Shown here: positions 4,113 to 57,963 of the stretch, one piece after another
Position numbering within the stretch: position 1 is the first letter of the stretch
How the letters are laid out: every line of letters starts with the position of its first letter
NCBI GenBank assembly: GCA_050013915.1
Contig: JBEKEI010000011.1
Span: forward strand, 73 to 64,072
DNA from: Roseiarcus sp.
GTDB taxonomy: Bacteria > Pseudomonadota > Alphaproteobacteria > Rhizobiales > Beijerinckiaceae
Direction of reading: 5' to 3'
DNA length: 64,000 nt
Notes under the pieces: model-generated
What the model saw: only the letters and a program-made list of their open reading frames with translations
The model's database searches: none
What the model was told of the DNA's origin: nothing
Program-made: the position numbers and the translations under genes

Positions 4113-4168
4113 CGCTCGCGACTGACCGGCGCGCTCGGCGCCCGCGCCTTTGACGCCAAGAGGGGCAA

Positions 4169-44750: not shown

Positions 44751-46199
44751 ATGGACTCGCCCGGGACAGTTCTGATCGCCTCACAGGCCGAGAGCGAGTG
44801 GTCGGCCACCACCAGCATGCTGGCCGACGACTTTGGCTATCGCGTCCTGGTCGCCCGCTCGTCCGCGGAGACGGCCAAGGCGTTCCGCGACGTCCACGTT
44901 GATCTCGTCATCGCCGACGACGCCGCCGCGATCGACGGACGCAGCATCCTCGCCGGGCTTCGCATCTCCCATCCCGACATCATCCGGGTTCTGGTCGTCG
45001 ACGCGGAATGTGTCCTGACGCCAGGCGCGATCGCGGCGATGGCGGTGTACCAATTCGTTCGCAAACCGATCGACGCCCAGCAGATCAGCCTCGTCGTCGA
45101 GCGCGGGCTGGAGACCCGGGAACTTGCTCGCCGGCACCGCCTGCTGTCGCGCGAGTTCAAGGTCAAGGGCGACTCGACGGTTTTCAACGAGGGCCGCGGT
45201 CTGCCGTTTCGTCCCGAAAGCCAGCGCTTCGAGAAGCTCGTCTTCGTCAGCGAGAAACTGGCGGATCTGTGCGATCTCGCCCGCAAGGCCGCCAGGACCG
45301 AATTGCCGATCCTGATCCAGGGCGAGACGGGCACCGGGAAAGAGCTGCTGGCGCGCGCGATACACTACAACTCGCCCCGTCGCGCCAGTCCGCTCATGGT
45401 TCAGAACTGCGGCGGCATGCCGGACGATCTCCTCCACTCCGAGCTGTTCGGCCACAAGCGCGGCGCCTATACGGGCGCCATTTCGGATCGGCTGGGCCTG
45501 TTTCGCGCCGCCGATGGCGGGACGGTCTTTCTCGACGAAATCTCGGAGGTCTCGCCCTCCTTCCAGATCGCCCTCCTGCGCTTCCTCCAGGAGGGCGAGG
45601 TGAAGCCGCTCGGCTCCGACCGGACCGAGTTCTGCAACGTCAGGATCATCGCCGCGGCCAATCGTCCCTTGCGAAAGCTCGTGGCGGCCGGGGCCTATCG
45701 CCAGGATCTCTATTTCAGGCTGAAGGGCTTCGAACTCGAGGTGCCGCCGCTGCGGGACCGGCCGGACGACATTCCGGCGCTCGCCGAGTTTTTCGCAGCC
45801 AAGCACAGCGACGCGATCGGCAGGAAAATCCTCGGCCTCTCGGCCGGCGTCGTCGAAAAGCTGGTCGCCTTCGACTTTCCCGGCAATGTCCGGGAACTCG
45901 AGAACGAAATCCGGCGGATGGTCGCGCTCGCGAAGGACGGCGAATATCTGACCACGCAGAACCTGTCGCCGATGCTGCTCGCAGCCCCGCCGCGCGACGC
46001 GCCGGCGCGCCATGGCTTCGCGCCGGTGGGAGCCACGCTGAAGGACAAGGTCGAGAACCTCGAGAAGCACCTCGTTCGCGAGGTTCTCCAGCGCCATCGA
46101 TGGAATCAGAGCCGCGCCGCCAGCGAACTCGGCCTGTCCAGGGTTGGCCTCGCCAACAAGATCCGGCGCTATGACCTCGACGGCGCGGACCGGAGATAG
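44751..46199 (+). CDS. sigma-54-dependent NtrC/HoxA/HupR-like response regulator
   Basis: 482 aa. Receiver domain (DLVIADD, KP), AAA+ domain (GETGTGKE, GAYTGA, RxDLYFRL) and Fis-type HTH (NQSRAASELGLSRVGLANKIRRY). Confidence 0.85.
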   Translation: MDSPGTVLIASQAESEWSATTSMLADDFGYRVLVARSSAETAKAFRDVHVDLVIADDAAAIDGRSILAGLRISHPDIIRVLVVDAECVLTPGAIAAMAVYQFVRKPIDAQQISLVVERGLETRELARRHRLLSREFKVKGDSTVFNEGRGLPFRPESQRFEKLVFVSEKLADLCDLARKAARTELPILIQGETGTGKELLARAIHYNSPRRASPLMVQNCGGMPDDLLHSELFGHKRGAYTGAISDRLGLFRAADGGTVFLDEISEVSPSFQIALLRFLQEGEVKPLGSDRTEFCNVRIIAAANRPLRKLVAAGAYRQDLYFRLKGFELEVPPLRDRPDDIPALAEFFAAKHSDAIGRKILGLSAGVVEKLVAFDFPGNVRELENEIRRMVALAKDGEYLTTQNLSPMLLAAPPRDAPARHGFAPVGATLKDKVENLEKHLVREVLQRHRWNQSRAASELGLSRVGLANKIRRYDLDGADRR

Positions 46200-46204
46200 G
46201 CGCG

Positions 46205-46450
46205 ATGGTCGATCCGGACGATCCCGGCGGCAACCAGCGAGGCGGCGAGATCGTCCGCTTTCCGCAGTCCCGGCTGCGCCCGGCCGGCCGCGGCCAGAGG
46301 TTCCGGGAACTCGGTACGAGCCGGCTCGCCGCGCGTCTCGGATATCCGGACCGGCAGGCGACCGGCCACTGGTGCAGCCGCTGTCGCGGCATCTGGTACG
46401 GTTACCTGCTCGAAGCGACCTGTCCCGTTTGCGGCAACCGGCGCGGCTGA
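46205..46450 (+). CDS. zinc-ribbon small protein (CxxC-N15-CxxC)
   Basis: 81 aa. GGAGA lies 10 nt upstream of the ATG, and GC3 bias is strong. ...HWCSRCRGIWYGYLLEATCPVCGN. No family recognised. Confidence 0.45.
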   Translation: MVDPDDPGGNQRGGEIVRFPQSRLRPAGRGQRFRELGTSRLAARLGYPDRQATGHWCSRCRGIWYGYLLEATCPVCGNRRG

Positions 46451-46609: not shown

Positions 46610-46625
46610 TGGCACGTGAAATGCT
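46610..46625 (+). promoter_or_regulatory. sigma-54 (-24/-12) promoter
   Basis: TGGCACgtgaaATGCT. The GG and GC doublets are 12 nt apart, as in TGGCAC-N5-TTGC. It lies 59 nt upstream of the small-subunit ATG and next to an enhancer-binding-protein gene. Confidence 0.55.
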
Positions 46626-46683: not shown

Positions 46684-47646
46684 ATGCCCAATCTGCTGTG
46701 GCTCCAGGGCGGAGCGTGCTCCGGCAACACCATGTCGTTCCTCAACGCCGAGGAGCCGAGCGCCTGCGACCTCGTCACGGATTTCGGGATCAACGTGCTC
46801 TGGCATCCCTCGCTCGGCATGGAGCTCGGCGACAACCTGCAGAAGATGCTCAAGGGGCTCGTCGCCGGCGAGATGCCGCTCGACATCTTTGTCTTCGAGG
46901 GCACCGTCGTCAACGCGCCGGACGGGACCGGCGAATGGAATCGCTTCGCCGGCCGGCCGATGAAGGCCTGGGTCGCCGATCTCGCCAAGGTCGCCAGCTA
47001 CACCGTCGCGATCGGCGATTGCGCGACCTGGGGCGGCATTCCGGCCACCGCGCCCAACCCTTCGGAGAGCCAGGGCCTCCAGTTCCTCAAGCGCGCGCAC
47101 GGCGGATTCCTCGGCAAGGACTACCGGTCGAAGGCCGGTCTGCCCGCGATCAACGTCCCGGGCTGCCCGGCGCACCCCGACTGGATCACCCAGATCGTCG
47201 TCGCGGTCGCCACCGGGCGCGGCGCCGATCTCTCGCTCGACGAGCTGCAACGTCCCAAGACGTTCTTCACGAGCTTCACCCAGACCGGTTGCACCCGCAA
47301 CATGCATTTCGCCTACAAGGTTTCGGCGACCGAGTTCGGCCAGAGAAAGGGTTGCCTGTTCTACGACCTGGGATGCCGCGGGCCGATGACCCATTCCCCG
47401 TGCAATCGCATCCTGTGGAACCGCCAATCCTCGAAGACCCGCGCCGGCATGCCGTGCCTCGGCTGCACGGAGCCGGAATTCCCGTTCTCCGAACTGCTGC
47501 CGGGCACGGTGTTCAAGACCCAGACGGTGATGGGGATTCCCAAGGACATGCCGTCGGGCGTCGACAAGGCCGGCTACGTCAAATTGACTGCAGCGGCGAA
47601 GGCGGCGTCGCCCGCCTGGGCCGAAGAGGACATTTTCGTCGTCTGA
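46684..47646 (+). CDS. hupS: [NiFe]-hydrogenase small subunit, no Tat leader (group 2a-like)
   Basis: GGGAGGA-N4-ATG. MPNLLWLQGGACSGNTMSFLNAEEP...GDCATWGG...VPGCPAHPDW...GCLFYDLGCRGP...PCLGCTEPEFPF. Confidence 0.9.
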   Translation: MPNLLWLQGGACSGNTMSFLNAEEPSACDLVTDFGINVLWHPSLGMELGDNLQKMLKGLVAGEMPLDIFVFEGTVVNAPDGTGEWNRFAGRPMKAWVADLAKVASYTVAIGDCATWGGIPATAPNPSESQGLQFLKRAHGGFLGKDYRSKAGLPAINVPGCPAHPDWITQIVVAVATGRGADLSLDELQRPKTFFTSFTQTGCTRNMHFAYKVSATEFGQRKGCLFYDLGCRGPMTHSPCNRILWNRQSSKTRAGMPCLGCTEPEFPFSELLPGTVFKTQTVMGIPKDMPSGVDKAGYVKLTAAAKAASPAWAEEDIFVV

Positions 47647-47703: not shown

Positions 47704-49302
47704 ATGGGCGCCGCTGTTCAAACGCTCGACATCTCACCCGTCGGCCGCGTCGAAGGCGATCTCGACGTTCGCGTGGAGATCGAAGACGGGGTCATCACCA
47801 ACGCCTGGACCCAGGCGGAGCTGTTTCGCGGCTTCGAGGTGATCCTGCGCGACAAGGATCCGCAGGCCGGGCTCGTCGTGACGCCGCGCGCCTGCGGCAT
47901 TTGCGGCGCGTCCCATCTGACCTGCGCGGCCTGGGCGCTCGACACGGCCTGGCAGACGACGGTGCCGCGCAACGCGATTCTGGCGAGAAATCTCGGCCAG
48001 ATCGTCGAGAGCCTGCAGAGCATTCCGCGCCATCACTACGGACTGTTCATGATCGACTATACGAACAAGAACTACTCGAAATCGAAATTTTACGAGGAAG
48101 CGGTGAAGCGCTGGTCGCCGTTCACCGGCGCCAATTACGAGATCGGGGTCACCATCTCGGGCAAGCCGGTCGAAATCTACGCGCTCCTCGGCGGCCAGTG
48201 GCCGCATTCCAGCTACATGGTGCCGGGCGGGGTGATGTGCGCGCCGACGCTGACCGACGTCACCCGGGCCTGGTCGATCCTCGAATATTTCCGGCGGGAG
48301 TGGATGGAGAGGGTCTGGCTCGGCTGCTCGCTCGAGCGCTACGAGGAGATCAAGTCCCACGACGACCTGATGGCCTGGATCGACGAACGGCCGGAGCATG
48401 CCAATTCCGATCTCGGCCTCTACTGGCGCATGAGCATGGACATCGGCGCCCACAAATTCGGGAAGGGCCACGGCAGGTTCATCAGCTGGGGCTATCTGCC
48501 CCATGAGGACAAATACAACAAGCCGACGATCGACGGCCGCAACGCCGCCCTCATCATGAAGAGCGGGGTCTATGACGGCGCCGCCGACTCGCACAAGCTG
48601 ATGGATCAGAAATTCACCCGCGAAGACACGCTGCACGCCTGGTATGACGAGCCCGGCGGCAAGCATCCGTTCGATCGCACCACGACGCCGACGCGCAAGA
48701 ACACGGTCGACATGGCGGGCAAGTATTCCTGGTCGACCGCCGTCCGCCACGAGGAGAACGGGCGGCTCGAGGCGGGGCCGCTGGCGCGGCAGATGGTGGC
48801 GGGCGGCAAGCACGGCGAATCCTGGCAGCATCACGATCCGCTTGTCCTCGACATGTACAAGAAGATGGGCGGCGCCAGCGTCCTGCTGCGCCACTTCGCC
48901 CGCATGCACGAGGGCGTGAAGCTCTATCGACAGGCGGAGCGCGCCTTGCGCGAGTTCAGGCTGAACGACCCCTGGTACGTCAAGCCGACCGAAAAGGACG
49001 GACGGGGCTGGGGCGCCACCGAAGCGATCCGCGGCGCGCTCTGCCACTGGATCGAAGTGCAGGGCGGCAAGATCAAGAACTATCAGATCGTCGCGCCCAC
49101 GACCTGGAACGTCGGGCCCCGATCGGGGGATGGCGTTCGCGGTCCGATGGAGGAAGCGCTCATTGGCGCGCCGATCGCCGATCCCCATGATCCCGTCGAG
49201 GTCGGCCATGTCTGCCGCTCCTACGACTCCTGCCTCGTCTGCACGGTGCACGCGCATGACGCCAGGACCGGCGAAGAGCTTGCGCGTTTTCGGACCGCGT
49301 GA
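47704..49302 (+). CDS. hupL: [NiFe]-hydrogenase large subunit (group 2a-like)
   Basis: 532 aa. LDISPVGRVEGDLDVRV, N-terminal Ni-Fe ligand pair RACGICGASH, C-terminal pair SYDSCLVCTVH, then a 16-aa cleavable tail. Confidence 0.9.
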   Translation: MGAAVQTLDISPVGRVEGDLDVRVEIEDGVITNAWTQAELFRGFEVILRDKDPQAGLVVTPRACGICGASHLTCAAWALDTAWQTTVPRNAILARNLGQIVESLQSIPRHHYGLFMIDYTNKNYSKSKFYEEAVKRWSPFTGANYEIGVTISGKPVEIYALLGGQWPHSSYMVPGGVMCAPTLTDVTRAWSILEYFRREWMERVWLGCSLERYEEIKSHDDLMAWIDERPEHANSDLGLYWRMSMDIGAHKFGKGHGRFISWGYLPHEDKYNKPTIDGRNAALIMKSGVYDGAADSHKLMDQKFTREDTLHAWYDEPGGKHPFDRTTTPTRKNTVDMAGKYSWSTAVRHEENGRLEAGPLARQMVAGGKHGESWQHHDPLVLDMYKKMGGASVLLRHFARMHEGVKLYRQAERALREFRLNDPWYVKPTEKDGRGWGATEAIRGALCHWIEVQGGKIKNYQIVAPTTWNVGPRSGDGVRGPMEEALIGAPIADPHDPVEVGHVCRSYDSCLVCTVHAHDARTGEELARFRTA

Positions 49303-49362: not shown

Positions 49363-49707
49363 ATGGCAGGATCCTCGTGCGAAAGGCGAGCGCCCATGAA
49401 CGGCGGCAGGGAAGGACAGCTCAAGGCGATCGCGACCCTGTTGGCGCGCGGCCTGGCCACCGAGGTCGAGCCCTTTCCGGAGACAGAGAAGGAATTCCTG
49501 ACGATCCTGACCGAACTGCGCCAGCTCGAGCCGGACGACCTCGAGGGAAAGCTCGTCGTCGGCGGCTTCCTCGACCACCCCTACGGTCCCGAGAAGCAGC
49601 GATGCATGGAATGCATGTACTATCTGGTGCATCGCCGGTGGTGCGATCTGCCGGAACTGGCGGTGCCCGTCGAACCCGACTGGTGGTGTCGTCTTTGGCG
49701 CATCTGA
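49363..49707 (+). CDS. small Cys-rich protein, HiPIP-like CxxC-x9-C-x14-C motif (copy 1)
   Basis: Ends ...QRCMECMYYLVHRRWCDLPELAVPVEPDWWCRLWRI. Start is ATG 49363 or ATG 49396. No signal peptide. Confidence 0.55.
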   Translation: MAGSSCERRAPMNGGREGQLKAIATLLARGLATEVEPFPETEKEFLTILTELRQLEPDDLEGKLVVGGFLDHPYGPEKQRCMECMYYLVHRRWCDLPELAVPVEPDWWCRLWRI

Positions 49708-49754
49708 CGCCGTCGGGGCGGCGACGAACCGGCGTCGGGAGGCAGGAGTTCAGC

Positions 49755-49982
49755 GTGAGCGATCCAGCCAGCCAAGCCATCGTCGATCGTCTCCGGGCGG
49801 CCGCGGGCATGAAGGAAAGGGCCGTCATCGCGGAACTGGCGCACGCGCCCGTCGAGTCCGATGGGATCAGTAGGTCCTGCGAGAACTGCATCTATTTTCT
49901 TGCCCGCCGCAGCTGGTGCGATTTGCCGGAACTCGACATTCCGGTCGATCCCGAATGGTACTGCGCGCTATGGCGGGTCTGA
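49755..49982 (+). CDS. small Cys-rich protein, HiPIP-like motif (copy 2)
   Basis: AGGAG-N6-GTG 49755. Ends ...SRSCENCIYFLARRSWCDLPELDIPVDPEWYCALWRV. A clear paralog of the preceding ORF. Confidence 0.55.
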   Translation: MSDPASQAIVDRLRAAAGMKERAVIAELAHAPVESDGISRSCENCIYFLARRSWCDLPELDIPVDPEWYCALWRV

Positions 49983-50062: not shown

Positions 50063-50551
50063 GTGATCGCCGTCATCGGGTGCGGAAATTCAAATCGCTG
50101 CGACGACGGCGTCGGCCCCGAGGTCGTGCGCGCCCTCAGGAAACGCGACTTCGGCGCCGGGATCGGGCGATTGCGGCTCATCGATGCCGGGACGGACGGG
50201 ATGGCGGCGATGTTCGCGGCGCGCGGTTGCGCCACGCTGATCATCGTCGACGCCTGCCGCTCCGGGGCGGAAGCCGGGGCGATCTTCGAGGTCCCCGGAC
50301 ATGAACTCGCGCAGAGCTACGCGCCCTCGCTCACCCTGCACGATTTCCGTTGGGATCACGCACTGGATGCGGGGCGCAGGATTTTCCGCGAGGCCTTTCC
50401 GGCCGACGTGGTCGTGCTGCTCGTCGAGGCGGCGACGGTGGATTACGGGCTCGGCCTGTCGCCGGCCGCCGCCGCCGCCGCGGCGATGGTCGTGCGCCGC
50501 ATCGAAACGTTGATCGCGGCGCGCCTGCAATCAGAGGCGGCCGGCTCATGA
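50063..50551 (+). CDS. hupD: hydrogenase maturation endopeptidase (HupD/HybD family)
   Basis: GTG 50063 follows GGAGCAAGGAG. VIAVIGCGNSNRCDDGVGPEVVRAL...LIIVDA...LHDF. Confidence 0.8.
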   Translation: MIAVIGCGNSNRCDDGVGPEVVRALRKRDFGAGIGRLRLIDAGTDGMAAMFAARGCATLIIVDACRSGAEAGAIFEVPGHELAQSYAPSLTLHDFRWDHALDAGRRIFREAFPADVVVLLVEAATVDYGLGLSPAAAAAAAMVVRRIETLIAARLQSEAAGS

Positions 50552-50868
50552 GCGCGCCCGCGACCGTCACCCTGAAGCGCGGCAGCCTCTACCTGAGCCG
50601 CGATGTCGCCGATCGCTATTTGGCGGGGCTCGAGGCGATCGTCCTGCTGCGTCGGGGCGACGACCTCGCGATCCTCCCGGTGCGGCATGCGGCGGCGGGC
50701 GGGTCCTTCCTCAAGCGTCGCAACAGCGCCGGCGACCGCGTCGTTCACGCGCCGGAATTCTTTCGCGCGCATGACGTCGGCGACGACATCGAACGCGAAC
50801 TCGCCGTCTCATGGTCGAGGGAAGCGGCCGGGCTGGTCGCGACAGGCGCCTTCGCTTCGCAAAGATAG
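50548..50868 (+). CDS. hypothetical 106-aa protein coupled to the endopeptidase gene
   Basis: The ATG overlaps the hupD stop (ATGA). MSAPATVTLKRGSLYLSRDVADRYLAGLEAIVLLRRGDDLAILPV... No family recognised. Confidence 0.5.
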   Translation: MSAPATVTLKRGSLYLSRDVADRYLAGLEAIVLLRRGDDLAILPVRHAAAGGSFLKRRNSAGDRVVHAPEFFRAHDVGDDIERELAVSWSREAAGLVATGAFASQR

Positions 50869-50971
50869 TTTGCAATTCGCATAAGCGTTAGACATTCGAT
50901 CGGCGTTGCGTTAGCTTTTGCCAAAACATGCGTCCCTGATGTCGGAACCAGGTCGCACGGGAGGATGCGCA

Positions 50972-52018
50972 ATGGCGGGTGATCGCGTTGCGGACGAGAT
51001 CCGGGCCGCGCTGGCCGCAGCCGAGGACGAGAGCGCCGCCGCGTCCGAGCGCGCCGAAATGCTGATGGAAATCGCGATGGGTCTCCAGCAACGGCCGAAG
51101 TCGGCCGATCAGCTGCGCTCGGCGGTCGCCCTCTACGACAGGGCGCTGGCGACCTGCCCGGAAGACGAGCCCCTGCTGCGCGCCCGGATCATGGCGAGGA
51201 AGGGGACCGCGCTGCAGGCCATCCCCGAACAGGGCACGAGCGCGCTCGAGGCGGCGCGCGCGGCCTACGAGCAGGCGATGCCGACCCTTTCGAAAGCAGG
51301 CCGGGCGGAAGAACTCGCCGAGGCCGAGATGAATCTGGGGGTGGTCATCCAGAACCTCTGCGGCGCCGGCCGGGCGCGCGTCACGGATGCGATCTCGGCC
51401 TATCAACGCGCGCTGCGCACTTTCGATCGCGACCGCCATCCCAGCGAATTCGCGATCCTGCAGAACAATCTCGCGACGGCGTTTCTGTCGATTCCCTTCG
51501 CGGACGAACGCGGCAGGATGCGCGAGGCGCTCGCGGTGCAGGCGTTCGAGGAGGGGCTGCGGGTCGTCAATCTCGTCGATCATCCGCAGGAATATGCGAT
51601 GCTGCAGAACAATCTCGGCAATGCGCTGCAATATGCGTCGTCCGGCCATGTCGCGGCGAACAATCTGCGTGCGCTCGAAGCCTATCACGAGGCGCTGAGA
51701 GTGCGGACGCGCGAATCCTCGCCGCTCGAATTCGCCAATACGATTTCCAACATGGCCAATTGCCTGTGGAACCTGCCGGACGAGCCGGGCCGCCCCGAGC
51801 ATGGCAATCGGGTCAATCTGGCGAGGGCCAGGGCGGCCTATGCCGAGGCGCGCGCGATATTCGTGGCGCATGGCGAAACCGACAAGGCGCGCATCGTCGG
51901 CGAAGCGCTCGATCAGATCGGACGCGAAATTCTCGCGCTGCCGGCGACCGACGCGATCGGCGCGCCGGGCCGAGCGGGTCCCGGCGCCGGTGCGGAGCGG
52001 AGCGCAGCGGCGCCATGA
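50972..52018 (+). CDS. TPR-like helical-repeat protein
   Basis: GGGAGGA precedes ATG 50972. Repeated ...A..AY..AL......P.E.A.LQNNLG.A... units. Confidence 0.6.
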   Translation: MAGDRVADEIRAALAAAEDESAAASERAEMLMEIAMGLQQRPKSADQLRSAVALYDRALATCPEDEPLLRARIMARKGTALQAIPEQGTSALEAARAAYEQAMPTLSKAGRAEELAEAEMNLGVVIQNLCGAGRARVTDAISAYQRALRTFDRDRHPSEFAILQNNLATAFLSIPFADERGRMREALAVQAFEEGLRVVNLVDHPQEYAMLQNNLGNALQYASSGHVAANNLRALEAYHEALRVRTRESSPLEFANTISNMANCLWNLPDEPGRPEHGNRVNLARARAAYAEARAIFVAHGETDKARIVGEALDQIGREILALPATDAIGAPGRAGPGAGAERSAAAP

Positions 52019-52221
52019 CCGGTCTGTCGCCCGGCGCCGCGCTGGCGGCCTTCGTCCTCGGCCTGGCCGCCTCGGTCGTCGGGGGCGCGCTCGGCGGCGT
52101 CGCGATCGGCGGCAAGGCGCTCGGCAACCAGCTCGCCGGTGCGATGGGCGGATTTTTCGGGCCGCTGGCCGGCGCCGGCGGACTCGTCGTCGGCCTCGTC
52201 GTACTGGCGATCATCCGCTGA
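52015..52221 (+). CDS. 68-aa glycine-zipper membrane protein
   Basis: The ATG overlaps the TPR stop (ATGA). MTGLSPGAALAAFVLGLAASVVGGALGGVAIGGKALGNQLAGAMGGFFGPLAGAGGLVVGLVVLAIIR. Confidence 0.5.
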   Translation: MTGLSPGAALAAFVLGLAASVVGGALGGVAIGGKALGNQLAGAMGGFFGPLAGAGGLVVGLVVLAIIR

Positions 52222-52233
52222 GGAGCCTCCCCG

Positions 52234-52458
52234 ATGTGGGAAATGACCAAGAACACGATCGGCCTCTTCTTCGCCGGCAAGCTGTTCGCCGAACCCCGCA
52301 TGGTCTGTCGGCAACTCGCGATCGGCGTTCTGACCACAGCGGTGGTTCTGATCGGCCTCGCCGAAGCCGGCGCGCCGTACTGGCTCGCCGCGCTGGTCGC
52401 CGGGCTGATCGGCGGCGCGATGCAGCCGTACCTCTTCAAGGATCTCCGCTACCGTTGA
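52234..52458 (+). CDS. 74-aa two-TM membrane protein
   Basis: MWEMTKNTIGLFFAGKLF...LAIGVLTTAVVLIGLAEAGAPYWLAALVAGLIGGAM. Confidence 0.5.
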   Translation: MWEMTKNTIGLFFAGKLFAEPRMVCRQLAIGVLTTAVVLIGLAEAGAPYWLAALVAGLIGGAMQPYLFKDLRYR

Positions 52459-52465
52459 GGCCACG

Positions 52466-53335
52466 ATGAACGCGTTCGACATGGCGGCGACGCAGCGCAA
52501 CGATCTTGCCGGATTCGTCGGCGACATCGAGCGGCTCGAGGCGATCTTCGACAGCTGGGACGAGACGCCGCGCGCCGTCGTGCAAGCCTACCGCCGCTCG
52601 ATCGAGGCGTTGAACGGCGAGGCGTTGCGGCGGCTGGTCCGCGCGCTCAAGTCCGACACGGCGGCGCTCGCCGCGATGAAATCGGCGGTCGCCGACGAAG
52701 TCGTCTACGCGGTTCTGCGAAGACACGACATCGTCAAGCCCAGTCTCAGCGAGCGGGTGGAGGCCGCGCTCGACGGCGTTCGCCCCATGCTCGCCTCTCA
52801 CGGCGGCGACGTCGAACTGGTGAGGGTCGCGCCGCCAGCGATCGAGGTGCGGTTCACCGGCGCCTGCGACGGCTGCCCGGCCTCGGCGCTGACGTTCCAC
52901 GCCGGCGTCAAGAAGGCCGTCCAGGACTCCTGCCCGGAGATCGCCGAGATCCGTCAGGTCAAGGGTCTCGGCGGCGCCAGCGAAGGGAGCGTCCGCTTCA
53001 TCAGCCCGTTCGCGCTCGGGGCGGAGGGCGACTGGCTGTTTGCGGCGACCCTGTCCGACATCCCGGAACGCGGCGTTCGCGCCGTTACGCTCGGCGGCGA
53101 GGCCCTGCTGCTGTCGCGCCAGGGCGCGGCGGTCACCTGTTTCCAGAACGCCTGCGCGCACCTGGGCCTCGCGCTCGACGGCGGCGAGGTCGCCGATGGC
53201 GTGCTGACCTGCCCTCATCACGACTTTCGTTATGATCTGGCGAGCGGGGAATGCCTGACCGCGCCGCAGGTGCAGTTGCAGTCGCATGCCGTGCGCGTCG
53301 TCGGCCGCCGCGTCGAAGTGAGGCTCTCGAAATAA
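52466..53335 (+). CDS. NifU-C-terminal-domain plus Rieske [2Fe-2S] fusion protein (HucE/HhyE-like)
   Basis: 289 aa. LASHGGDVELV...GACDGCPAS (NifU-like), then CAHLG...CPHHDF (Rieske CxH...CxxH). Confidence 0.8.
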   Translation: MNAFDMAATQRNDLAGFVGDIERLEAIFDSWDETPRAVVQAYRRSIEALNGEALRRLVRALKSDTAALAAMKSAVADEVVYAVLRRHDIVKPSLSERVEAALDGVRPMLASHGGDVELVRVAPPAIEVRFTGACDGCPASALTFHAGVKKAVQDSCPEIAEIRQVKGLGGASEGSVRFISPFALGAEGDWLFAATLSDIPERGVRAVTLGGEALLLSRQGAAVTCFQNACAHLGLALDGGEVADGVLTCPHHDFRYDLASGECLTAPQVQLQSHAVRVVGRRVEVRLSK

Positions 53336-53336
53336 C

Positions 53337-54539
53337 ATGCGTGTCTCGCTCGCCCCCTCGCATCTGCGCGCGGTCCCGATCCGGGGCGGACCGGGCGCCG
53401 GCGCGCCGGCGCTGCTCGCCGCGGATGGCGCGCGCGTCCTGCTCGGCGGCAGCGTGGGGGAGGACGGCCTGGCGCGCCCGATCGCGCCCGCCGCCGCGAC
53501 GCTGTTCGGGCCGCGCGGCGCGGCTCTCGCAGGGCCCGACGGGCCGCTGTTCGTCTGCGACACCGGCCATCACCGGCTGCTGATGTGGCGGCGGATTCCC
53601 GATGCGGACAACACGCCCGCCGACCTCCTGATCGGCCAGCCGGACTTTTCCCGCGAAGGGCGCAATGGCAGGCGCGAGGTCGGGCCGGCGACGCTCAACG
53701 TCCCGACCGGCGTCAGCGCGGCCGAGGGCGCGCTCGCGATCGCCGACGCCTGGAATCATCGGGTGCTGATCTGGCGAAACCATCCCGACGCCGCGAACCG
53801 GCCCGCCGACGTCGTGCTCGGCCAGGCCGACTTCCGCTCCGGCGCCGCCAATCGCGGCCTCGACCGCGCGCGCGCCGACACGCTGAACTGGTGCTACGGC
53901 GTCGCGATCGCGCAGGGCAGGCTCATCGTCGCCGATACCGGCAACCGGCGCGTCCTCGTCTGGAACGCCATTCCGGAGACGAACGGCGCGCCGGCGGATC
54001 TCGTCCTCGGGCAGCGGGATTTCACCACCCGCGACGAGAACGCGGGCGAAGGCGCGGGCGCGCGCGGAATGCGCTGGCCGCACGGCCTCGCAGTCGCGAA
54101 CGACACGATCCTGGTCGCCGACGCGGGCGACAATCGCGTGATGGGCTGGCGGGGTTGGCCGCGGGCGAACGGCGCGCCGTGCCACTTCGTGCTGGGCCAG
54201 GCCGACATGACCGGGCTCGACCACAACCGCGGCGCCTATCACCCGACCGCGGGCGCGCTGAACATGCCCTATGGGCTCGGCGTGCAGGCTTCGCGCCTGA
54301 TCGTCGCCGACACCGCCAATTCGCGCCTGCTCGGCTTCGAACTGGCGGAGCTGGCGACCGGCGCGCCGGCCTCGCGGCTCGCCGCCCAGCGCGACTTCGG
54401 CGACAAGGGCGACAACCGCTGGTCCAACGCCGCCCGCGACAGCCTGTGCTGGCCCTATGGCGCGGCGGCCTGCGGCGCGACTCTGGCGATCGCCGACACC
54501 GGCAACAACCGCGTGCTCCTGTGGGAGGCCGCGCCATGA
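53337..54539 (+). CDS. NHL-repeat beta-propeller protein
   Basis: 400 aa with six repeats of the type IADTGNNRVLLW / VADTGNRRVLVW / IADAWNHRVLIW. Confidence 0.8.
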   Translation: MRVSLAPSHLRAVPIRGGPGAGAPALLAADGARVLLGGSVGEDGLARPIAPAAATLFGPRGAALAGPDGPLFVCDTGHHRLLMWRRIPDADNTPADLLIGQPDFSREGRNGRREVGPATLNVPTGVSAAEGALAIADAWNHRVLIWRNHPDAANRPADVVLGQADFRSGAANRGLDRARADTLNWCYGVAIAQGRLIVADTGNRRVLVWNAIPETNGAPADLVLGQRDFTTRDENAGEGAGARGMRWPHGLAVANDTILVADAGDNRVMGWRGWPRANGAPCHFVLGQADMTGLDHNRGAYHPTAGALNMPYGLGVQASRLIVADTANSRLLGFELAELATGAPASRLAAQRDFGDKGDNRWSNAARDSLCWPYGAAACGATLAIADTGNNRVLLWEAAP

Positions 54540-57270: not shown

Positions 57271-57963
57271 ATGTCCAACGGAGGCGATCTGGAGGGGCTC
57301 TACCCGTTCCTGCACGGCAGGAGCCAGGACACGGGCGCACTCGACGCCGCGCTGCTCCATTCGGTGGAGGAGAAGGCGCGCGACTCGCGGGAGACCAACC
57401 TGCGCTTCTTCGCCGCGCAGGCGCCGGTGCTCGTCGCGGCCGCGAAGACGGTTGCGGCGGTCTACCGGGGCGGCGGCCGGCTGTTCTCGATGGGCAATGG
57501 CGGCTCCAGCTGCGACGCGTCGCATGTGGCGGTCGAATTCGTCCATCCGATCACGGCGGGCCGCCCGGCGCTCGCCGCGATCAATCTCGTCGCCGATCTC
57601 GCGATGATCTCCGCCGTCGGCAATGACGTCGGCTTCGATCACGTCTTCGTTCGCCAGATCATCGCCCAGGGCAAGGCGGGCGACGGGCTCATCGGCATTT
57701 CGACCAGCGGCAATTCGGCCAATCTGATCGCGGCCTTCGCCAAGGCCAGGCAGATGGGCATCGCGACCATCGGGCTGGCGGGCGGCGAGGGCGGCCGGAT
57801 GGCGGCGAGCGGGGTCGTCGACCATTGTCTGGTCGTGCCCACGACCTCGATCCATCGCATCCAGGAATGCCACGTCGTCGCCTATCACATTCTCTGGGAC
57901 CTCGTGCACACCTTGCTGGCGGACGATCGCGGTTCGGCGACCACCAGGGGAGCGGCGGCATGA
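57271..57963 (+). CDS. SIS-domain (GmhA/phosphoheptose-isomerase-like) protein
   Basis: 230 aa. FSMGNGGSSCDASHVAVEF...GISTSGNSANL. Sits between hypC and hypD, and its stop overlaps the hypD ATG. Confidence 0.8.
   Translation: MSNGGDLEGLYPFLHGRSQDTGALDAALLHSVEEKARDSRETNLRFFAAQAPVLVAAAKTVAAVYRGGGRLFSMGNGGSSCDASHVAVEFVHPITAGRPALAAINLVADLAMISAVGNDVGFDHVFVRQIIAQGKAGDGLIGISTSGNSANLIAAFAKARQMGIATIGLAGGEGGRMAASGVVDHCLVVPTTSIHRIQECHVVAYHILWDLVHTLLADDRGSATTRGAAA

Follow-up and report, generated by a model that had tools for sequence, protein, structure and literature searches.

The question raised by a locus of the alphaproteobacterium Roseiarcus sp. is what two small tandem genes, whose products share a block of four cysteines, do between the structural genes of a [NiFe]-hydrogenase and the gene for its maturation protease. 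The locus was analyzed within a stretch of 64,000 nucleotides (nt) of contig JBEKEI010000011.1 (assembly GCA_050013915.1), hereinafter the window, in which the two open reading frames (ORFs), ORF1 and ORF2, follow the genes for the small and large subunits (HupS and HupL) of a hydrogenase of group 2a, the Huc type. The two proteins are paralogues from an uncurated family that is a fixed part of proteobacterial Huc-type operons. What the family, named here for its four-cysteine (Cys4) site, contributes to the hydrogenase is a matter of graded likelihood.

The original prediction, which was made from the sequence of this stretch alone, held that two adjacent small ORFs share a C-terminal block. 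Both genes are on the plus strand and, in the last 37 residues, 20 positions are identical (54%), with 76% positives and no gaps (BLASTP, E = 2e-17). The four Cys read exactly as predicted, C-x2-C-x9-C-x14-C, with aromatic residues around the last Cys, and both proteins end four residues past it. The claimed location directly after the large subunit also stands: HupL ends at position 49302, and the gaps that separate, in succession, HupL, ORF1, ORF2 and the protease HupD are 93, 47 and 80 nt. The start of ORF1 had to be moved. Most likely, this gene begins with the ATG at 49396, the start shared with its best homologues, which are mostly 103-104 amino acids (aa) long, rather than at 49363 as originally predicted, a reading that yields 114 aa and is rejected on the homologue lengths. 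ORF2 starts with the GTG at 49755, with GGGAGG upstream, and its homologues consist of 75 aa; a 201-aa reading from 49377, which overlaps ORF1 in another frame, disagrees with the homologue lengths and was discarded. A terminator-like hairpin at 49667-49686, within the 3' end of ORF1, was judged to be a chance occurrence. A metagenome-assembled genome (MAG) of Roseiarcus sp. encodes a protein with 100% identity to ORF1, and scans of Pfam and NCBIfam gave no match for either ORF1 or ORF2. As predicted, both are leaderless, with neither a twin-arginine motif nor a hydrophobic region, and among 186 short members of the family, a regular expression for twin-arginine translocation (Tat) signals matches 5, and 2 have a hydrophobic N-terminal region with a single transmembrane-like segment. 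Given the lack of a Tat signal, ORF1 and ORF2 are predicted to be cytoplasmic.

The identity of the adjacent hydrogenase, which the original prediction assigned to group 2a, is clear. The best match of HupL in the PDB is Huc of Mycobacterium smegmatis (7UTD/7UUS, E ~4e-187), far above every other solved hydrogenase, and HupS aligns end to end with M. smegmatis HucS (E = 1e-155). Judging from these alignments, HupS and HupL of the window are close orthologues of the mycobacterial enzyme. HupS has the triplet LFY where HucS has LFY, about residue 228, and by our own count of the alignment, we take its Tyr to be the counterpart of Tyr229 of the quinone pocket (PMC10017518).

The family is large and anonymous. 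A search of a large protein collection yielded 1237 homologues of ORF1, all unnamed and with no Pfam domains among the 120 matches listed, compared with just 21 homologues of the ORF2 type, all about 75 aa long; in a scan with one genome per species, relatives of ORF1 are found in at least 401 species genomes. A search of proteins with a profile of the C-terminal module retrieved only 39 short 'hypothetical' fragments and added no annotation. The 80 best loci by ORF1 similarity are mostly from Alphaproteobacteria (Hyphomicrobium, Bradyrhizobium, Mesorhizobium, Methylocapsa/Methylocella and Methyloceanibacter), the remainder coming from a few Gammaproteobacteria, Myxococcota and one Udaeobacter MAG. 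In all 80, the ORF1 homologue directly follows hupS-hupL and precedes hupD, in the same gene order as in the window. Divergent members, drawn from an exhaustive profile search that gave 134 clusters at 50% identity, occupy the same position in the operons of loci L083, L084, L085, L086 and L087 and of a plasmid of Sphingopyxis alaskensis. Of the loci with a short form, 87 of 87, and the window as well, have it in the interval from hupL to the gene for the maturation protease. The co-occurrence with group 2a hydrogenases, which had been suggested as a check, holds in every short-form context examined. The median identity is 74% for ORF1 and 59% for the maturation protease, a comparison that is biased because the loci were picked by ORF1 similarity.

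Members of the family are also found on 12 plasmids, at the same operon position and invariably annotated 'hypothetical protein'. The entire Huc-type cluster, both small genes included, is carried by the 28.5-kb plasmid NC_008036.1 of S. alaskensis RB2256 (L088) and 11 others, among them Bradyrhizobium symbiosis plasmids of ~980 kb and plasmids of Mesorhizobium, Novosphingobium, Octadecabacter and Roseovarius; 10 of the 12 are typed as mobilizable or conjugative. The plasmid carriage suggests horizontal spread of the complete Huc-type module.

The usual arrangement of the family is a pair. In a motif scan of 89 sequences (88 loci and the window), 75 contain two tandem members, 13 contain one and a single sequence contains three. 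Type A copies (CxEC...WWCRLW), to which ORF1 belongs, number 87, and type B copies (Cx[TS]C...WSCRLW), 95-110 aa long in most loci, number 73; copies of the ORF2 type (CxNC...W[YF]C) are limited to the window and the MAG loci L010, L036 and L064 (n = 4). ORF2 is the second tandem copy and sits where most loci have the longer type B gene; by this position and its residual N-terminal similarity, it is identified as a type B copy that lacks the first ~30 residues. The C-x2-C-x9-C-x14-C spacing is invariant in 39 of 39 and in 56 of 56 aligned members. Among the 56 diverse members, C70, C73, C83, C98 and W96 are invariant, and Y75, P86, P91, L100 and W101 nearly so; Y75, L100 and W101 are invariant as well among 38 closer homologues of ORF1. 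Both ORFs of the window have the features by which the family is defined, namely, the C-x2-C-x9-C-x14-C-x4-end module, Trp around the last Cys and the location between hupL and the protease gene.

The closest known counterpart of the module is the cluster-binding region of the high-potential iron-sulfur proteins (HiPIPs, PF01355). The two have in common the spacing of the four Cys, an aromatic residue two positions past the CxxC and a W/Y-C-x-x-W ending near the C-terminus, and ORF2, with its 75 aa, is also similar to HiPIPs in size. The Cys spacing of both ORFs falls within the range of seven reference HiPIPs, CxxC-x(8-16)-C-x(13-15)-C, and the aromatic residues of the family, two positions after the CxxC and at C-1 and C+3 of the last Cys, correspond to those that shield the HiPIP cluster. 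The comparison made use of the PROSITE-type signature C-x(6,9)-[LIVM]-x3-G-[YW]-C-x2-[FYW] and of an alignment of the seven reference sequences, one of which was verified as identical to 1CKU; when the Gly position is left free, a scan of all six reading frames of the 64-kb window finds the signature in the two ORFs and nowhere else. In an hhalign comparison of the family module with the HiPIP alignment, all four Cys are paired, with P = 0.001 and a score of 19.7, at a probability of just 21%. Cys-preserving shuffles score 9.8 +/- 2.0 (0 of 200 reach 19.7) or 11.0 +/- 2.4 (1 of 200), so that the resemblance is not merely one of Cys spacing. The module is thus HiPIP-like in its motif and may be a remote HiPIP derivative. 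By any curated criterion, ORF1 and ORF2 are not members of the HiPIP family. They differ from HiPIPs in having Trp in place of the signature Gly, an unrelated, helical N-terminal half and no Tat signal, and in that their genes, in most cases one A and one B copy, are part of a hydrogenase operon. On the Cys pattern alone, the module was judged not to be a rubredoxin, a zinc ribbon or WhiB-like.

In the mycobacterial Huc, menaquinone bound on HucS receives its electrons by way of three [3Fe-4S] clusters (PMC10017518). HucM (MSMEG_2261, DUF1641), which is encoded upstream of hucS, acts as the scaffold of the Huc octamer; its coiled coils make up a lipid-facing tube for quinone (PMC10017518). In M. 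smegmatis, the protease gene directly follows hucL (PMC2799521), and therefore mycobacteria have no equivalent of ORF1 or ORF2 at that position. Conversely, neither Pfam scans nor PDB sequence searches gave a match to DUF1641/HucM among the cluster products tested from the window and its relatives; when the other small cluster proteins were joined into a single query, the only PDB matches were single-chain antibody fragment (scFv) linkers, an artefact of the Gly-Ser spacers. Upstream of hupS, there are only a sigma-54-dependent activator gene, an 81-aa ORF and, in some loci, genes for NikR-like and HupE-like proteins. Hence, the tethering or coupling of these enzymes must be due to something else. 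The Cys4 family is similar to HucM in consisting of small proteins encoded beside the Huc-type structural genes, with one long form located at the position of HucM itself, and in the cases checked, the distribution of the two looks complementary; however, there is no sequence similarity between them, and HucM has no Cys4 site.

The explanation that we favor, with a probability of roughly 0.45, is that a cytoplasmic Cys4 module, which probably binds a [4Fe-4S] cluster, is carried by a docking domain that works together with HupSL where the enzyme meets the membrane. The C-terminal module of ~35 residues, which follows a variable, helical N-terminal part, would hold a single cubane [4Fe-4S] cluster, buried and on the cytoplasmic side. 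The type A/B pair would join HupSL in the role of accessory subunits for redox or docking and connect the distal cluster of HupS to a membrane-side acceptor, either quinone or cytochrome b. The identity of the site as Fe-S rather than Zn, its high potential, the association with HupSL and the direction and partner of electron transfer are all parts that we infer. A more specific version, in which the A/B pair would be a new class of cytoplasmic, HiPIP-derived [4Fe-4S] subunits that replace the HucM tube in Proteobacteria, as a high-potential relay on the cytoplasmic side or a docking adaptor between the hydrogenase and ubiquinone or cytochrome b, is distinctly speculative. A link to the membrane is suggested by P0161 (391 aa), in which a Ni_hydr_CYTB domain (PF01292, E = 1.6e-13, five transmembrane-like segments) is fused to a complete ORF1-like module; on its metagenome contig, the gene for this protein immediately follows that for a [NiFe] small subunit.

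There is also evidence against this explanation. With regard to the cluster, the strict HiPIP signature matches 7 of the 7 reference HiPIPs and neither ORF; the claim that only the Gly is replaced is accurate for the two ORFs, which the relaxed signature recovers, and throughout the family, this position is invariably occupied by Trp, with Ser replacing the [YW] before the last Cys in type B copies. The search against PF01355 called for in the original prediction turned out negative, with no match for ORF1 or ORF2 at E<=1; weak matches were found in 2 of 56 members (E ~0.2), the best one, P0152, scoring 12.4 bits against a gathering cut-off of 22 bits, in an alignment that spans profile positions 25-65 of 66, i.e. 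the Cys-bearing part. The hhalign probability is low, and no HiPIP was retrieved from the PDB sequences with the family profile; PDB searches with each ORF, a long form and the profile produced neither HiPIP nor HucM, only insignificant matches to PHD fingers and Egl-nine. Foldseek searches with two AlphaFold2 models, of full-length ORF1 and of the 42-aa module (pLDDT, the model confidence score, of 71 and 68, respectively, and below 50 at residues 67-78, in the Cys region of ORF1), gave no significant match in the PDB and no HiPIP, with the Cys region modelled at low confidence. The N-terminal 65 residues of ORF1 are predicted to form helices at 2-17, 31-43 and 49-56, unlike HiPIP.

With regard to the coupling role, purified Huc consists of the S, L and M subunits only, and its quinone site adjoins the distal cluster on HucS, where the quinone is reduced directly (PMC10017518), so that a protein electron acceptor is not required. 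According to the work cited in PMC7735108, Hup of Acidithiobacillus ferrooxidans was purified as a two-subunit enzyme. Then, some members are much longer (330-450 aa) because of an extra ~250 aa at the N-terminus, a domain with no family match, and the genes for these long forms are in scattered locations: one (L082, 8001-9053) lies among the hyp maturation genes, between hypE and hypA, another (L081, 8001-9260) is far from any hydrogenase gene, and that of L090 does not adjoin hydrogenase genes. A further long form (L084, 10001-11209) is encoded directly upstream of hupS, at the HucM position, beside cyoABCD-SURF1. The P0161 fusion comes from a single metagenome contig of 3.5 kb and is possibly a read-through. 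The composition of the purified enzymes, the reduction of quinone at HucS and the scattered long forms weaken the case for a simple carrier. The original proposal of cytoplasmic HiPIP-like carriers survives in part: the proteins are conserved, leaderless and hydrogenase-linked, with the appropriate Cys spacing and aromatics, but they fall outside Pfam HiPIP, have Trp for the signature Gly and differ in the N-terminal domain.

A main rival, which we consider less likely, is that the four Cys hold a structural Zn(II) and that the proteins are non-redox scaffolds or adaptors that organize or tether HupSL, standing in for HucM without any electron transfer. The Foldseek results and the low confidence of the Cys region are compatible with it, the only matches that either ORF has among PDB sequences, at E = 2.7-9.7, are insignificant ones to a PHD zinc finger, helices are predicted for the N-terminal half, and a long form is encoded at the HucM position in L084. 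Direct reduction of quinone at HucS implies the need for a scaffold rather than for an extra redox center, and no HucM/DUF1641 turned up among the cluster proteins tested. The pattern of the site itself speaks against zinc: a single CxxC followed by two lone Cys, at spacings of 9 and 14 residues, is typical of HiPIP cubane ligation, unlike zinc knuckles, which come in pairs. In addition, the aromatics conserved at C+2, C-1 and C+3 correspond to those that shield the HiPIP cluster, and the HiPIP similarity exceeds that of Cys-preserving shuffles. Nor is there any sequence similarity to HucM.

The other main rival, which appears slightly less likely again, is that the pair are maturation or protection factors and not part of the working enzyme. 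They could provide the small subunit with its unusual [3Fe-4S] clusters, repair these clusters, or furnish electrons in aerobic assembly, in the manner of the rubredoxin HoxR, which does so for group 1d enzymes. The abundance of accessory genes in the cluster (HupD, NifU-Rieske, NHL and Hyp), the long form between hypE and hypA in L082, and the purification of both Huc and A. ferrooxidans Hup without such a subunit are all in line with this possibility. However, buried HiPIP-like sites are atypical of cluster-transfer proteins. The location of ORF1 and ORF2 before the protease gene and beside the structural genes, their greater conservation compared with the protease, even if affected by the choice of loci, the cytochrome b fusion in P0161, which points to electron transfer or membrane docking, and the two members with a transmembrane-like segment favor the docking and redox explanation over a pure maturation role. 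HucE, once proposed as an electron acceptor, contains a NifU domain, and alternative roles in assembly have been acknowledged for it (PMC6883350), which fits a maturation function for accessory Fe-S proteins of these operons; conversely, the M. smegmatis operon has its protease gene right behind hucL, and maturation of Huc apparently proceeds without the Cys4 proteins. Finally, that ORF1 and ORF2 are ordinary periplasmic HiPIPs that merely neighbor hydrogenase genes is highly improbable. In its favor are the spacing of the Cys and an ending similar to WCxxW, and nothing else; against it are scores below the Pfam threshold, the absence of a Tat leader, a different N-terminal domain and the fact that, wherever the context was examined, the genes are strictly syntenic with those of a hydrogenase that is cytoplasmic.

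The original prediction knew of no characterized pairing of this kind; such a pairing had in fact been proposed. Kucera et al. 2020 described a 'putative HiPIP', DN052_04130, near hupLS in the group 2a operon of A. ferrooxidans and proposed that it is an Fe-S carrier and, together with a NifU-Rieske protein, the missing link by which electrons from Hup, in the cytoplasm, enter the quinone pool; the DN052_04130 protein was detected in H2-grown cells (PMC7735108). The order of the DN052 locus tags is that of the window, with the NHL and NifU genes (04090 and 04095, the former confirmed by a peptide match) at one end and 04125-04130 at the other. Judged from this position only, DN052_04130, along with DN052_04125, would be a member of the ORF1 family, next to hupL. 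That proposal differs from the present analysis in being an annotation-based suggestion, without family analysis or biochemistry, and no further paper in the collection searched ties HiPIPs to group 2a hydrogenases; recent descriptions of alphaproteobacterial group 2a clusters list HucS, HucL, HucE, HycI and HypF only (PMC12319191). Thus, the pairing of a HiPIP with a hydrogenase has been noticed once, from annotation, and the family is still uncurated, uncharacterized and annotated as hypothetical.

Other candidates for the coupling of such hydrogenases have been put forward. HucE and HhyE, with NifU and Rieske-type domains, were proposed as the immediate electron acceptors of group 2a and 1h enzymes, and M. 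smegmatis needs HucE for its Huc activity (PMC6883350). These proteins and the Cys4 family are alike in being putative Fe-S proteins encoded in hydrogenase operons, and the window contains a HucE-like gene as well (Table 1); the folds and motifs are unrelated, and HucE is present in mycobacteria, whereas the M. smegmatis huc operon has no space for an ORF1-like gene between hucL and the protease gene. The classical third gene after the structural genes encodes the HupC/HyaC cytochrome b (PF01292), which passes electrons to quinone and is the type of domain to which P0161 is fused, whereas ORF1 and ORF2 are soluble and lack a haem-binding membrane domain; there is no cytochrome b gene within the hydrogenase cluster of the window. 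PHG067, a hypothetical protein cited in PMC6883350 as the proposed acceptor of the group 1h hydrogenase of Cupriavidus necator, shares with the Cys4 family its location in an operon for an O2-insensitive uptake hydrogenase but belongs to a different Pfam family, DUF5947. A tblastn search of pHG1 with ORF1 found nothing.

Table 1. Hydrogenase operon of Roseiarcus sp. and its flanking genes, in window coordinates
Feature	Position	Strand	Remarks
Sigma-54-dependent transcriptional activator	44751..46199	+	Upstream of the hydrogenase operon; homologues at the same position in 67/80 loci
Conserved 81-aa ORF	46205..46450	+	CxxC...CxxC, zinc-ribbon-like; between the sigma-54 activator gene and hupS
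Sigma-54 promoter-like site TGGCACGTGAAATGC	46610..46624	+	~60 nt ahead of the hupS ATG
HupS/HucS-type [NiFe]-hydrogenase small subunit	46684..47646	+	320 aa, without Tat signal; Pfam Oxidored_q6 and NiFe_hyd_SSU_C
HupL/HucL-type [NiFe]-hydrogenase large subunit, group 2a	47704..49302	+	532 aa; Pfam NiFeSe_Hases
ORF1	49396..49707	+	103 aa; type A member of the hydrogenase-linked Cys4 family
ORF1 C-terminal Cys4 module CMECMYYLVHRRWCDLPELAVPVEPDWWCRLWRI	49603..49707	+	
ORF2	49755..49982	+	75 aa, GTG start; N-terminally truncated type B paralogue
ORF2 C-terminal Cys4 module CENCIYFLARRSWCDLPELDIPVDPEWYCALWRV	49878..49982	+	
HupD/HycI-type hydrogenase maturation endopeptidase	50063..50551	+	Pfam HycI, E = 5e-12; TIGR00072, E = 9e-34
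Conserved 105-aa protein	50551..50868	+	Start overlaps the hupD stop; syntenic in 78/80 loci
Conserved TPR-like protein	50918..52018	+	About 340-366 aa; faint TPR matches only; syntenic in 78/80 loci
68-aa glycine-rich predicted membrane protein	52015..52221	+	Glycine-zipper type; homologues in 69/80 loci; 67-aa gene in the same place in L083
74-aa predicted membrane protein	52234..52458	+	Syntenic in 74/80 loci
HucE-like NifU + Rieske [2Fe-2S] protein	52466..53335	+	Pfam NifU, E = 4e-21; Rieske, E = 7e-16
NHL-repeat protein	53337..54539	+	Pfam NHL, E = 3e-25; syntenic in 73/80 loci
SIS-domain (GmhA-like) gene	57271..57963	+	Between hypC and hypD

The genes around the tandem pair are themselves conserved. 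The counterparts of the activator gene in L083, L084 and L088 carry Sigma54_activat Pfam marks or are annotated as sigma-54 regulators. The promoter-like site TGGCACGTGAAATGC has one mismatch to TGGCAC-N5-TTGC; in the entire window, 4 such sites are found compared with 3.2 expected, so that the count is not significant and the position alone is suggestive. This site and the activator gene upstream suggest RpoN-dependent control of the Huc-type operon. The 81-aa ORF between the two ends in HWCSRCRGIWYGYLLEATCPVCGNRRG, which holds its two CxxC pairs, has a faint Zn_ribbon match as its sole Pfam hit and is found at the same position in 67 of the 80 loci (tblastn), with an 80-aa homologue in L083; a role in the regulation of the operon, or as one of its accessory proteins, is conceivable. 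Several loci (for instance, L001, 1705-3023) encode a NikR-like regulator and a HupE/UreJ-like nickel transporter between this ORF and hupS, which is not the case in the window.

Downstream of the protease gene, the 105-aa protein has no family match in Pfam or NCBIfam, and the two membrane proteins of ~70 aa, encoded between the TPR-like and HucE-like genes, are candidates for the membrane anchor of a Huc-type enzyme that lacks HucM. In a gammaproteobacterial-like cluster (L084, 15009-15686), a 225-aa protein with a CxxCxxCC domain (PF03692, putatively Zn/Fe-chelating) is encoded between the type B and protease genes. The NHL gene is followed by hypF, hypC, the SIS-domain gene, hypD, (hypE), hypA and hypB, in this order. 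The SIS-domain gene is found between hypC and hypD also in L082, L086, the S. alaskensis plasmid and the group 1h cluster of pHG1, and accordingly is a conserved, unexplained member of the maturation gene sets of O2-insensitive hydrogenases.

Group 2a hydrogenases allow aerobic bacteria to live on trace and atmospheric H2, and the coupling of Huc-type enzymes to the respiratory chain is understood for Mycobacterium only, where it involves the HucM quinone tube. The proteobacterial clusters examined, from Bradyrhizobium, Hyphomicrobium, Methylocapsa, Mesorhizobium, Sphingopyxis and probably Acidithiobacillus, encode near-identical catalytic subunits and no detectable HucM, and always have the Cys4 family beside hupL. 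What is new here is a HiPIP-like cluster motif on a cytoplasmic, hydrogenase-dedicated scaffold. If the site binds Zn, the family would still likely be a structural subunit, worth including in structural work. If a high-potential cluster and docking to HupS prove true, the missing coupling component would be identified, the HiPIP motif would be extended to the cytoplasm, and more than 1,000 'hypothetical proteins' would gain a name and a curated model. Hydrogenase specialists might not find this startling, but the family of ORF1 and ORF2 is a widely distributed candidate for a component in the coupling or assembly of proteobacterial Huc-type enzymes.

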